Counted from the stretch's first letter, positions 112 to 22,837 are shown. The stretch is 64,000 nucleotides of DNA from an uncultured Gemmatimonadaceae bacterium (GCA_963790305.1 CAWBOC010000009.1:704001-768000); one strand, 5' to 3'. Notes: generated by a model from the sequence alone, not told the origin. Program-made: numbers and translations.

Positions 112-247
112 GCATAACTAGCGCTTGCAACCGGCAGGCGCGACGGTTAAGGAAGCCATCGCAGTTCGGTGCCTTCAAGTGCAACAGCAGGCGCGCGTCC
201 GCGCGCCTTTGAGTTGACCGCCTACAGTTGAATGGCGGGCGTTATGC
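112..247 (+). repeat. attC site, subfamily A
   Basis: GCATAAC-TAGCG-CTTGCAAC...CAGTTGAAT-GGCGGGC-GTTATGC. Confidence 0.9.
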
Positions 248-283
248 GGATGCCAAGCTTGTGCGCATGGTTAGCTTCTGCGC

Positions 284-568
284 ATGGCGTTCCGCTTCCA
301 CTGGGACCCTAAAAAGGCCCGAGCCAATTTCGCCAAGCACGGCGTGAGCTTCGAAGAGGCGGCGACCGTCTTCGGTGACCCGCTCGCCCTCTCTATCAGC
401 GACCCCGAACACTCCTCTCCCGCGGAGGTCCGCTTCCTCCTCCTCGGCCAATCCGGTTCGGGGCGCCTTCTGGTCGTTGCCCATACGGAGACCGGGGACG
501 ATATTCGACTCATCTCCGCCCGGCTCGCCTCCCCTCGCGAGCGTCGCTTCTATGAAGAAGACCAATAA
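284..568 (+). CDS. BrnT family toxin
   Basis: [29 protein letters not shown]...IRLISARLA is typical of BrnT. Confidence 0.9.
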
Positions 569-821
569 GCCGAAGGCCAAGAGCGCCAAGCGCTCTTCCC
601 CGTCGCCCGACAAGGACGCGCTCCGCCCCGAGTACGACTTCTCCGCGGGCATCCGTGGCAAGTACGCCGCGCGATACAGCGCCGGGACGAATCTCGTCCT
701 TCTCGAGCCGGACATCGCGGCGCAATTCCCGGATTCCGAGTCCGTGAATCGCGCCTTGCGATCGCTGCTTGACGATGCGCGAGCCGGCGGCGGTCGGCGG
801 CGGCGCCGCCGCACCGCATAA
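552..821 (+). CDS. Antitoxin partner of BrnT (BrnA-like)
   Basis: [15 protein letters not shown]...[17 protein letters not shown]; overlaps the toxin; stop TAA lies in the attC R'' GCATAAC. Confidence 0.85.
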
Positions 822-950
822 CTAGCTGTTGCACCTGGCAGGCGCGATGTTCAGGGGAAGCCATCACGTTCGAACCCTTCAAGTGCAACTGCGCAGGCGG
901 GCGTTGCGCGCCTTCTGGAAGATCGCCTGCAGGTGAACGCAGCGTTCTGC
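816..950 (+). repeat. attC site, subfamily A
   Basis: GCATAAC-TAGCT-GTTGCACCTGGCAGGCG...CGCCTGCAGGTGAAC-GCAGC-GTTCTGC. Confidence 0.92.
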
Positions 951-1110
951 GGACCGCGAGCATCGTTCGTAGGACGACGCTTCCGAATGTCCGGGATTCG
1001 ATCACGGACCACCTCGTACTAGAACACTCCACAGCGCTCAGCCGTTATCCGAATCGTTAATCGGTCGCTCACCGACCGGGTGCGTTTCTTCAAGCTTGCG
1101 GAGGCATGAT

Positions 1111-1578
1111 ATGACCACTCGAACTATTGCTACACTGCTGCTGCTGACCTGCGTTACAACCCACGCAAGCGCTCAGGCTGCGCGGCGGGACACCCTCGCA
1201 GAAGCACGCATCCGTGCCCTCGACAATGAAGAGCGCCTCGCGGCCCTCAACCAGGACTACACGGCGTTGGAGAGGCTTTGGTCCGAGCATTTTCTCGTCA
1301 ACGCGCCGTCCAACCGCATCTTGCCAAACCGGAACGCCGTTCTGGACTGGTTTCGCAAGGGAATGACGACGCGTTCATCCTACGACCGGAGGATCGAGCA
1401 CATCCGCGTTGATGGTGACATAGCAATTGTAATGGGCGAGGAGACAGTAACGCCGACCGCGAACGCGCCGCATGCGGGACAGGTGGTGCGTCGCCGGTTC
1501 ACCAACATTTGGAAGAAGGAAGGCGATACCTGGCGCCTATGGGCGCGCCACGCCAATGTGATCGCGGCACCGAATTAA
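1111..1578 (+). CDS. Secreted NTF2-like / DUF4440 protein
   Basis: Signal peptide; IRVDGDIAIVMGEE...RRFTNIWKKEGDTWRL. Confidence 0.8.
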   Translation: MTTRTIATLLLLTCVTTHASAQAARRDTLAEARIRALDNEERLAALNQDYTALERLWSEHFLVNAPSNRILPNRNAVLDWFRKGMTTRSSYDRRIEHIRVDGDIAIVMGEETVTPTANAPHAGQVVRRRFTNIWKKEGDTWRLWARHANVIAAPN

Positions 1579-1788
1579 CGAAGGAAAGGTCGCTCGGGGC
1601 ATGCCGAGGACGTCGAAGTCTATCCCGGTAACTCTCTACTTCTCGAGTTCATAGTGGGCCTTGAGCGGCTATGCGACTGGGTGGATAAGCGAGTCTCTAG
1701 TAACCCGCGCGAGAATCTTTAGGCGCGCTTCTCCGCGAGGTGCCTCACGCCCATCCCGTGCCGGAATAATCAGCATCGTTATGCCGCC

Positions 1789-1924
1789 GCATAACTACCC
1801 ACTGCACCTGACGAGCGCGATGTCCAAGGACGCCATCACATTTACGGCCTGTCGCGCTCGGCGCGACCGCGAGCACCCGTCTCCTGCGGAGCCGGACGCT
1901 CGCAGGTGAATGGGAGCGTTCTGC
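1789..1924 (+). repeat. attC site, subfamily B
   Basis: GCATAAC...GCACCTGACGAGCG...CGCTCGCAGGTGAA...GTTCTGC. Confidence 0.88.
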
Positions 1925-2340
1925 GGAACCGGGCCACACGGTTACCTTTATTGTCCATGCGACGCTTGACGGTAGGCGCAACACTCGCCCTCACTGCGTG
2001 CGCCACCCCCTTGCCCCCGAGCCACGCGGACACCAACCCCGTGGAGACGCGCCTCGCCCGACCGGCTCCTATCCAGCGCGCTCAGCTCACCTCCCGCAAC
2101 CGCAGCTCAACCCTACGGGCAGCCCTTTTTTGCTTGTCGTTCGCCCCTGCTGGACGCCCCTGCAACTCCAGTTGACCGACAATAGGCCTGATGACGTTAG
2201 GCTCTTCGTCGTTCGGCTCGCACCAACCGCGATCACTCCTTCTCATCATGGGCCGCTCACGCGATCGAACATGAAAAACTCTGAAAGCGTATCTCGTTTC
2301 GGGCGTCGCTGTGGGATGAGCGTCGTCGCCATCTCTATGC

Positions 2341-20933: not shown

Positions 20934-20970
20934 CGAGGCGCTGGCGCATTACTTTGACTCGAATTGATCG

Positions 20971-21228
20971 ATGAAGGCATTCTGGCAATACGTCGCATTG
21001 GCCGTCGCGGGGGCAGCACTGATCGCATCGATCTACTATGGACTCGCCGCGAGCCGATTTGTTGCCCCCACCGGCAGAAGGTTTGGCAGATCGACAGCGG
21101 TGTTCTTTACTCGCAAGGCGCCGCACGATTTCACCGGAATCGGCTACCGGCTTTACACCCGTCATGTCGCGGCCCTCGCCATTGCGGTTTCCGCGATGCT
21201 TGTGGGTGCGATCATCGGCCGCGTGTGA
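20971..21228 (+). CDS. Small membrane protein
   Basis: Two TM helices. Confidence 0.6.
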   Translation: MKAFWQYVALAVAGAALIASIYYGLAASRFVAPTGRRFGRSTAVFFTRKAPHDFTGIGYRLYTRHVAALAIAVSAMLVGAIIGRV

Positions 21229-21232
21229 TCGG

Positions 21233-21535
21233 ATGCCGACCTATCGCGTGTTCGTCGAAGGAACAAACCTCCTCATGCGTGACGAGGATCGCGCGGAACC
21301 CCAACGGTTTGGGTTCTACGTGACCCGCTTCATCGACGCCGAGGACTCCGAGCGCGCCGCCGAGAAAGCCCTGACGCTGGTGCGCAACGAGCCCAAGCTC
21401 ATCATGGCCGCGCTCAACTCGGCATACGATCCGCCCGCGTTCCGCGTCGACGAGGTCGAGTGCCTGGCGCCCGACGAGCACGCGCCCGCGATTCCTCCAG
21501 GCTTCGCGTTCTTTCTGGTCTCTCCCGACGGGTAG
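21233..21535 (+). CDS. Hypothetical protein
   Basis: MPTYRVFVEGTN...GFYVTRFIDA...PPGFAFF. Confidence 0.7.
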   Translation: MPTYRVFVEGTNLLMRDEDRAEPQRFGFYVTRFIDAEDSERAAEKALTLVRNEPKLIMAALNSAYDPPAFRVDEVECLAPDEHAPAIPPGFAFFLVSPDG

Positions 21536-21648
21536 ATCGAGAAAGGCGCGATGTTCAAGCCTTCAGACGCCGCCCGGCGGGCACGGTAAGCATCGCACTT
21601 GCGCGAGCTCGAGGAGCGTAATCGTCAGGCACCACGCCTAGAAAAGAC

Positions 21649-22035
21649 ATGGATAGAGAGACTCACTGGCACGTCTCCGTTTTCCACGGCGCACACGCGC
21701 GCTTTTCGCCGGGCCTCGTTCTGCTCCTCATGCCCGATGCGACCTGGGAAGTTTGCGACGAGGCCGGAGAGATCGGGCCCGCGGGCGCCGCGTATGGAAC
21801 CTGGCCGTCAGAGCGGGCCGCATGTCAGGAGGCGCTGCGCCTGCTGCGGTCGCGCTTCGGAGAAGGGACGCTTCCCTGTTGGGGCGCTGGCGCACCTGAC
21901 CGTGCCCTCGCCGAACTCGGGTATAACCGGGGTCGCGTGCGCTGGCGCTGGTGGCCGCCCGGCCTTACGAATACGGGGCAGCTGCCGGTGGGACCGGATG
22001 GGACACCCGCACCGTCTGCACCGCGGAGAGCCTAA
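21649..22035 (+). CDS. Hypothetical protein
   Basis: Stop within GCCTAAC (R''-like). Confidence 0.55.
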   Translation: MDRETHWHVSVFHGAHARFSPGLVLLLMPDATWEVCDEAGEIGPAGAAYGTWPSERAACQEALRLLRSRFGEGTLPCWGAGAPDRALAELGYNRGRVRWRWWPPGLTNTGQLPVGPDGTPAPSAPRRA

Positions 22036-22043
22036 CGCACACT

Positions 22044-22466
22044 ATGCGAGATATAGCTCGGTCCGCCTGGGTGCTCCTCGCAGGGGCCATTGCCGCGTGC
22101 ACTACAGAACCAGGCTGCGATATCTGCACCACGTCCGCCGTCGTCTACGGCACCGTGACGACCGACCTCGGATCTCCCATCCATGGAGCGCGCGTTCACG
22201 TCGAAGCGTTCCCCAATACCTGTGGCGGGGCGTTCGTGGCCGGGGGGTCAACGGTGCCTGTGCTCACCGCCGCTGACGGGTCCTACCGCGATCGCCCGTC
22301 TGCGATCGTTGCACCCTTCCACGCCTGCCTGCGTGTGATCGTCACGCCCCCGCCTGCCTCCGGACTGAGCCCGCGAACGGTCGACGGTGCCGAGGTAGAG
22401 TTCCTGAGTGACTACAGAGGACGAGACCGCGATAGCGTACGCGTCGATGTCTCGCTGTCACTCTAA
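22044..22466 (+). CDS. Lipoprotein with carboxypeptidase-regulatory-like beta domain
   Basis: AIAAC lipobox; VVYGTVT...PIHGARV...TAADGSY. Confidence 0.65.
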   Translation: MRDIARSAWVLLAGAIAACTTEPGCDICTTSAVVYGTVTTDLGSPIHGARVHVEAFPNTCGGAFVAGGSTVPVLTAADGSYRDRPSAIVAPFHACLRVIVTPPPASGLSPRTVDGAEVEFLSDYRGRDRDSVRVDVSLSL

Positions 22467-22837
22467 CGCGGCACCTTTGCCAGGGTCGCCGCGACGACCG
22501 CCAGGAAATCCTTGTAGTCGAGCGGCTTCGCGACGTATCCGTCGCAGCCGGCGGCGAGAATGCGCTGCTCGTCACCTTTCATCGCCAACGCGGTGAGCGC
22601 AATGATGGGAATGTCGCTCGTCGCCTCGTCGGCTTTCAGCAAGGCCGTCGCCTGAAGTCCATCCATCCCGGGAAGCTGGATATCCATCAGGATCAGGTCG
22701 GGATGCTGCTCGCGGGCAAGCGTCAATCCTGTTTCCGCATTCGTCGCCGCCACCACCGTATAGTCGGCCGACTCGAGCAGGAACGTCGACAGCTTCATGT
22801 TCGTCGCGTTGTCCTCGACGATCAGGATCGTGGCCAT
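22463..22837 (-). CDS. Single-domain response regulator (DivK-like)
   Basis: ILIVEDN, PDLILMDIQLPGMDG, ALTALAMKGD, YVAKP. Confidence 0.92.
   Translation of the reverse strand: MATILIVEDNATNMKLSTFLLESADYTVVAATNAETGLTLAREQHPDLILMDIQLPGMDGLQATALLKADEATSDIPIIALTALAMKGDEQRILAAGCDGYVAKPLDYKDFLAVVAATLAKVPR

Follow-up and report, generated by a model that had tools for sequence, protein, structure and literature searches.

The window analysed here, a stretch of 64,000 nucleotides from an uncultured soil bacterium of the Gemmatimonadaceae (assembly G000, contig C9, positions 704001-768000), carries a large array of integron cassettes. The locus is very probably a sedentary chromosomal integron (SCI) with a genus-specific family of long attC sites. 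In total 26 full-length attC sites, one attC of 59 nt and about four decayed sites were found over 27.9 kb. The evidence is made up of an intact integron integrase gene (intI), the sites themselves, the fold and covariation of their bottom strands, a footprint in the phase of the cassettes, the conserved position of the locus and the limitation of the site family to one genus. The category of system is a known one; what is unusual is that intI is co-directional with the cassettes, that the core and the unpaired bases are non-canonical, and that copies of the attI region occur without intI.

A preliminary description, made from the sequence of the window alone, had placed the array at positions 112 to 22470, and both limits had to be moved. 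The array begins 7.9 kb to the left of the window, where 12 more full sites lie at C9:696600-703756, and the last recognisable attC ends at window position 20008. Position 22470 is the stop of a response-regulator gene and there is no attC at that place. Since a filter-free search of window positions 20009-26000 with the attC model gave no member of the family at E < 0.1, the right limit of 22470 is unsupported. Positions without a contig name are window positions in the following.

Genome and search models

The G000 assembly consists of 4.31 Mb in 13 contigs. A profile hidden Markov model (HMM) was built from the 14 attC sites listed in the preliminary description and searched against the whole assembly. 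A covariance model of attC was made by us from 30 aligned bottom strands of the family. The taxon sample for this model consisted of 8 congeners, 16 genomes from the other genera of the family and 16 genomes from the two other families of the order. Integrases were searched for with TIGR02249, the NCBIfam integron-integrase model, at a cut-off of 265 bits. Additionally, we used a sample of 80 named loci from many phyla carrying IntI relatives of 49-65% identity.

Integrase and attI

An intI/attI platform had been expected upstream of the first base of the window, and an intact intI with a predicted attI is found there. The intI gene is an uninterrupted open reading frame (ORF) of 336 aa on the + strand at C9:694912-695922, followed by an attI-like region and the cassette array. 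TIGR02249 matches at C9:694984-695919 (+ strand) with 449 bits. Residues 23-336 align to residues 6-320 of Vibrio cholerae IntI4/VchIntIA (PDB 2a3v) with an E-value of 1.9e-89 and just one single-residue gap, and the integron-specific insertion (the extra domain near patch III) is therefore present, as had been looked for in a tyrosine recombinase at this place.

The gene comes directly after tsaD and lgt. A GTTATGC core lies about 215 bp beyond the intI stop, followed by the first ORF and then by the first attC at C9:696600. Downstream of intI in four congeners (G001, G004, G006 and G008) the core GCTGCAGAATAGGCGTT(A/C)TGC and two boxes upstream of it are conserved. Similarity between copies of the attI region stops at the GTTATGC core, and the first cassette comes directly after it. 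The predicted attI is thus the conserved region after intI, ending exactly at the GTT core, and the predicted attI of the genus has the same core as the R box of the attC sites. No family was found in a scan of the intI/attI region and the C7 locus (described below) against Rfam at gathering thresholds.

Like the cassette ORFs and the top strands of the attC sites, the gene lies on the + strand. The usual integron arrangement is given as intI divergent from the cassettes (PMC4889954); the co-directional arrangement is called atypical where PMC3607928 describes it, and is known from Treponema.

Sites and their fold

All 14 sites of the preliminary description are present at the positions where it had them start, with lengths of 133-140 nt. 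The HMM found 26 full-length copies on C9 from 696600 to 716660, every one on the + strand, with partial copies reaching as far as C9:724008. It further found three full copies on C8 (12687, 13214 and 13900) and one on C7 (274397), and gave no significant match outside these three loci in the assembly. The covariance model gave 33 matches in G000, all within the C9 array, C8:6-27 kb and C7:274.4 kb, and with a single orientation inside each locus. The attC repeat is thus real, well above chance and non-dispersed; scattering over the whole genome, which had been named as an outcome that would speak against an integron, was not observed.

The 14 sites start with G(C/T)A(T/G)AAC and end with GTT(A/C)T(G/A)C. 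The L'' box (GTTGCAAC-type) is longer by one base than the L' box (GTTGAAC-type). The R' cores of the array are GTTATGC, GTTCTGC or GTTATAC, with the invariant GTT/AAC triplets kept, and mean column identity across the 30 aligned sites is 73%. Counted over the genome, the cores of this array show no clear excess (GTTATGC 324 against 264 expected, GTTCTGC 630 against 596).

The bottom strands were folded as DNA, a check that had been proposed earlier, and the R-box/L-box hairpins form. The fold consists of a 7-bp R box, an asymmetric unpaired spacer and an L-box stem with one unpaired base; inward of the L box a second unpaired base lies between a 6-bp stem and a further stem, and the centre forms up to three hairpins. 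A distance of 6 bp separates the two unpaired bases, both of them on the arm facing the AAC triplet of the - strand; the same bottom-strand geometry, with a spacing requirement for the unpaired bases, is described by Nivina et al. 2016 (PMC5027507). Relative to shuffled sequences, z-scores of the bottom strands were at or below -3.8 in 22 of 27 sites. Among the minimum-energy folds (n=30), the R-box pairs formed in 18-21 and the L-box pairs in 23-24.

In the alignment of the 30 members 91.1% of the cells in paired columns are paired; sliding the partner columns by 1-3 positions lowers this to 25-39%. Change on both sides was seen in 11 of 32 pairs, and the observed covariation score was reached by none of 500 shuffles. 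One L-box pair splits into A-T and C-G (16/13). The next stem has one pair with GC 17, AU 6 and CG 3, and another with AU 21 and GC 6. The covariations in the stems pointed out earlier are real, being among the covarying pairs of this alignment.

Footprint of cassette exchange

Exchange at G|TT would assign the final six bases of R' to the following cassette, so that an R'' is expected to pair with the R' one site before it. Such complementarity to the preceding R' is seen in 23 of 26 sites (with attI as the first predecessor), and complementarity of R'' to the R' of its own site in 15 of 26. When the predecessors were permuted, the mean was 11.7 matches (standard deviation (sd) 2.4), and 23 were reached in none of 20000 permutations. 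The five bases outside the core follow the predecessor as well, with 70 of 130 identical against 48.4 (sd 4.2), a value again reached in 0 of 20000 permutations. As far as sequence can tell, cassette exchange at G|TT has left its footprint in this complementarity. The site at 3715 is one of the three exceptions, and fits the core of an attI-like copy in front of it.

Cassettes 4291-5192, 5193-5585 and 7518-7888 begin with shared bases and carry, on the right, attC sites of a shared subfamily, and the polarity of a cassette is therefore ORF followed by attC on the + strand. Cassette units are 356-2095 bp long. In 22 of 26 units an ORF of at least 39 aa stops between -60 and +11 nt from the start of attC. 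Up to position 13664 all ORFs with a Pfam match are on the + strand.

Distribution

The order tsaD-lgt-intI is found, with IntI 82-87% identical, in the four congeners with the conserved attI region, which bears out the sedentary chromosomal nature proposed for the array. The IntI of G003 nearest to ours (80% identity) has no tsaD or lgt in the preceding 8 kb. Full-length, high-scoring attC matches number 8-34 in five congeners and one in a sixth; G002 and G007, which are 81% and 71% complete, gave none. Among the 16 genomes from other genera of the family, 7 (the unpublished G015 being one of them) have weak matches, most of them about 95-100 nt long, and so does 1 of the 16 genomes from the two other families of the order. 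This distribution, with strong matches in 6 of 8 congeners and weak ones or none found in the rest of the order, upholds the claim of a lineage-specific attC family. An IntI above the cut-off was found in 28 of the 41 genomes searched.

A second IntI, 56-58% identical to the first, is present in G003 (C22), G004 (C74) and G008 (C229). At most about 1 kb downstream of this second integrase, G004 and G003 carry an attC belonging to the same family.

The attC model matched in 23 of the 80 named loci, and in 19 of these 23 the sites are downstream of and co-oriented with intI. The remaining ones are divergent (L023, L033 and L067) or have a same-strand site upstream (L047). The arrangement called atypical, found in several phyla among L010-L089, may be the common one in this group of integrases. 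Long matches (128-144 nt) were found among the named loci in four loci labelled Gemmatimonadales alone, which lends indirect support to the assignment to the Gemmatimonadota. None of the 80 has TsaD or Lgt adjoining intI, so that they gave no call of the phylum, and TsaD matches in a protein atlas were spread over mixed phyla. Gemmatimonadota are already listed among the phyla with integrons in PMC8618304.

In 20 public sequencing runs the share of sampled words was at most 0.11. Contigs from four soil or root metagenome runs carry single cassettes at 90-99% identity, with attC at their ends.

Comparison with known systems

The locus resembles the SCIs of Vibrio, which have attC sites of the Vibrio cholerae repeat (VCR) type, in its fixed chromosomal position common to related species, in its large array of attC sites of about 130 nt that form a homogeneous family specific to the taxon, and in carrying toxin-antitoxin (TA) cassettes with most other cassettes of unassigned function. 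It differs from them in the direction of intI, which is that of the cassettes, in an R-box core of GTT(A/C)TGC, in having C as the first unpaired base of the bottom strand and a variable last one, in a centre with up to three hairpins, in a smaller array (about 30 sites) and in a host from a different phylum.

Integrons of the Treponema denticola type likewise have intI upstream of attI and co-directional with the cassettes (PMC3607928); attC family and host lineage are different here. The four Gemmatimonadales loci (L029, L060, L066 and L088), from metagenome-assembled genomes, share an IntI of 58-62% identity, long attC sites (128-144 nt) downstream of and co-oriented with intI, the same layout of the L box and an unpaired C in it. 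Unlike our sites, theirs have canonical R boxes (GCCTAAC/GTTAGGC) and unrelated central sequences, and they score 23-43 bits with our model against 80-145 bits within the genus.

Copies of attI without intI

The attI region (about 200 bp from the intI stop to the GTT core) recurs at three other places in G000. One copy lies inside the array at 2903-3100 (+ strand); it is 86% identical over 199 bp to the attI beside intI and ends with GTTATGC. Another is found at C7:273902-274082 (74% identity over 186 bp), and a partial copy at C8:12578-12644. In the copies at 2903-3100 and on C7 the similarity ends at the same GTT core and cassettes come next. A tblastn search with IntI found no remnant of the integrase beside any of the copies (positions 1925-2900, C7 and C8).

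The C7 copy comes after a gene for a 1187-aa DUF4175-like protein and is followed by one cassette (attC at C7:274397-274533) and a DinB_2 ORF. Three full attC sites and fragments are present at C8:5984-27300, and tblastn with IntI gives no match on C8; having two or more attC sites with no intI nearby, this group is a CALIN, the term for attC clusters that have no integron integrase. G004 has further partial attI copies on its contigs C34 and C74, the former upstream of an attC cluster without intI. The attI copies differ from cassettes of the CALIN/delta-attI type in that about 70-200 bp of the attI region are repeated, not mostly 14-18 nt, and in that they head cassettes at three places without intI.

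It is quite possible that the array consists of two arrays joined in tandem, where the copy at 2903-3100 heads a second platform (its intI lost, or the copy brought in) that captured the cassettes from 3101 onward. This is suggested by the high identity of the copy up to the common core, by the next attC (3715..3850, + strand, 136 nt), whose R'' GCATAAC fits the core of the copy and not that of the preceding attC, and by the similar copies before cassettes on C7, on C8 and in G004. The lack of an IntI remnant in the tblastn search of 1925-2900, C7 and C8 argues against it, and partial attI sites are described within the arrays of mobile integrons, of class 1 and class 2, in PMC12901181, so that the copy could also be a passive by-product. 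Two joined arrays are compatible with an SCI and not opposed to it.

More tentatively, the attI region of about 200 bp may be a portable module in the genus, with one IntI possibly serving several attI platforms, from the attI beside it to the copies in the array, on C7, on C8 (truncated) and in G004, as a distributed integron. If so, cassettes would be captured, and perhaps expressed, at several chromosomal places, in place of one platform with passive CALINs. The copies without intI suggest how attC clusters lacking an integrase could still gain cassettes. In the full-text literature we found no counterpart of an orphan attI, and nothing equivalent for attI together with a CALIN.

Alternative explanations

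Several observations weigh against an SCI, or against one that is still working. The R' core does not conform to GTTRRRY, a real departure that the preliminary description had already seen, the R box being GTT(A/C)TGC. At the first unpaired position of the bottom strand 29 of 30 sites have C, and at the second 17 have A, 7 C, 5 T and 1 G; PMC5027507 words these bases as 'usually a G' and 'a conserved T'. A scan of both attI copies with the sigma-70 consensus, which may not be of the type used by the host, found no promoter. The distal third (12661-20008) has mostly decayed sites and two genes on the opposite strand, and may therefore be frozen. Read evidence of excision was not found, and the joints in metagenome contigs are untrustworthy for excision or reordering because their sides of 20-32 nt lie inside repeats.

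The decay past position 12660, a cassette gene split in two ORFs (PF00144, see below) and the missing read evidence in metagenome contigs would suit a relic, in which sites and intI were inherited, cassette exchange has stopped and the repeats persist by descent alone. We consider this unlikely. The intI frame is uninterrupted over 336 aa, with an end-to-end alignment to VchIntIA; 26 sites have preserved the R box, the L box and the two unpaired bases; and the phase between R'' and the previous R' is kept in 23 of 26 sites, together with the flanking bases. Moreover, the congeners have the same site family with mostly different cassettes, and single cassettes that are shared occur in different arrays.

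That the repeats are an intergenic element resembling repetitive extragenic palindromes or miniature inverted-repeat transposable elements, or some other structured repeat that has no relation to IntI and just happens to cluster here, is highly improbable: the length of about 136 nt, the branched centre with conserved sequence and the core unlike GTTRRRY would agree with it, but 33 of 33 matches fall in three loci with one orientation per locus and none dispersed, the main cluster begins at attI beside intI, the complementarity in phase fits exchange at G|TT, and of the 23 named loci matched by the model, 19 have related sites downstream of intI.

Proposed mechanism and use

For the SCI we propose that IntI would act on double-stranded attI at the core GCTGCAGAATAGGCGTT(A/C)TGC, about 215 bp past the intI stop, and also on the folded bottom-strand (- strand) hairpins of the 133-140-nt attC sites. 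Crossover at G|TT would insert and excise promoter-less cassettes of 356-2095 bp. At least three TA cassettes probably hold the array in place. As intI is co-directional with the cassettes, cassette transcripts probably arise either by read-through out of intI or at a promoter within the attI region. We infer recombination at the present day, expression of the cassettes and a stabilising role of the TA cassettes.

The locus provides a well-resolved chromosomal integron outside the Proteobacteria, with an attI defined by comparison within the genus. The attC family is specific enough for tracing the cassettes of the genus in soil metagenomes. The non-canonical R box and unpaired bases, together with the matching core of attI, make a test case for whether IntI recognises structure or sequence.

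Sites and cassettes in the window

All sites in the window are on the + strand. The first attC (112..247, 136 nt) closes a cassette that starts at window position -249. It is followed by a TA cassette (242-944) with an ORF for a BrnT-family toxin at 284..565 (+ strand; PF04365, E-value 1.1e-27); the next ORF on the + strand (552-818), without a Pfam match, is presumed to be the BrnT antitoxin. This cassette ends in the attC at 816..950 (135 nt). The attC at 1789..1924 (136 nt) belongs to a cassette with a DUF4440/SnoaL-like ORF at 1096-1575. Beyond the attI copy and the site at 3715, the attC at 4162..4296 (135 nt) has a rare R'' (GTATAAC), and the site before it has the complementary R' (GTTATAC), likewise rare. 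The attC sites at 5060..5198 (139 nt) and 5452..5591 (140 nt) belong to a subfamily with CACCTG/CAGGTG and GAGCG/CGCTC stems.

The attC at 6048..6184 (137 nt) precedes a TA cassette (6179-6897) with a 74-aa ORF (6233-6454, without a Pfam match) before an ORF for a ParE-family toxin at 6457..6741 (+ strand), ending in the attC at 6767..6903 (137 nt). The same TA cassette is found in G004 with 88.8% identity over 872 bp. Further sites are located at 7389..7523 (135 nt), 7755..7894 (140 nt) and 8674..8806 (133 nt).

The attC at 10767..10901 (135 nt) closes a 2.1-kb unit with a DUF2269 ORF, a glyoxalase ORF and an unassigned ORF. Inside this unit is an isolated R'-like remnant, GCGTTATGC, at 9425-9441. 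Contigs from three metagenome runs begin exactly at 9433, beside the core of the remnant; an attC may therefore have been lost here, which hints weakly that two cassettes once made up the unit.

The last full-length member is found at 12525..12660 (136 nt), in the cassette with the split PF00144 gene. This gene (beta-lactamase/serine-hydrolase family, 11273-12419) consists of two overlapping ORFs in different frames. Two truncated left halves of attC precede it.

The preliminary description had not listed the 59-nt member or the decayed and half sites at 11177, 15315, 16424 and 18207. The decayed attC at 11177..11307 has kept its R''-L'' half and part of the centre; its right half is replaced, and a second R''-L'' fragment starts at 11289. 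A strongly decayed attC-like stretch (16.6 bits) lies at 15315..15431. In the attC at 16424..16550 the R''-L'' half alone is intact, and at 18207..18333 the central hairpin and the L'-R' half alone. An insertion sequence or intron splitting one attC into these two was considered and rejected: between the two lies a YdjC-like gene, and no transposase was detected. The last recognisable site is the short member at 19950..20008 (59 nt), with R and L boxes and almost no centre. A scan for inverted repeats over 12600-23000 gave no attC-like pairs besides those found by the model. The stretches 17754-18186 and 18533-19183 are cassette DNA in the arrays of G001 and G004 (89% and 81% identity), and the region up to about 20 kb is therefore still array.

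Most ORFs of the array have no Pfam match. TA cassettes had been reported and are present, with BrnT, ParE and HicA/HicB by Pfam. Other matches are two DUF4440/SnoaL-like proteins, PrcB_C, DUF2269, a glyoxalase-family protein, DUF6959 and FKBP, and the genes on the opposite strand encode an amidohydrolase and a YdjC-like protein. Cassette content is mostly species-specific among the congeners; a few single cassettes are common at 77-89% identity and lie in other arrays.

Flanking DNA

The flank common to G004 and G008 resumes at 45054. Between 20009 and 45053 the window has about 25 kb of strain-specific DNA with ordinary-looking genes and no attC, and at the same place G004 and G008 carry 9.7 and 7.4 kb of unrelated DNA. 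The genes at 22.4-45 kb include a two-component system, an extracytoplasmic function (ECF) sigma factor with a Ser/Thr kinase, a TonB-dependent receptor and genes for the use of gluconate. The histidine kinase to the right of the array was considered as a syntenic flank and rejected, as it was not found in the 8 congeners at an E-value of 1e-100.

For 25 of 30 SCIs, attC bottom strands are reported to lie on the template of the leading strand in PMC5371416. Around the locus the GC skew of C9 switches sign, and it is too weak for telling the direction of replication.

Two direct copies of 300 nt, 84% identical and 426 nt apart, are found at 24851-25576 within a gene for a 969-aa PAS/histidine-kinase protein, and probably represent duplicated PAS domains.

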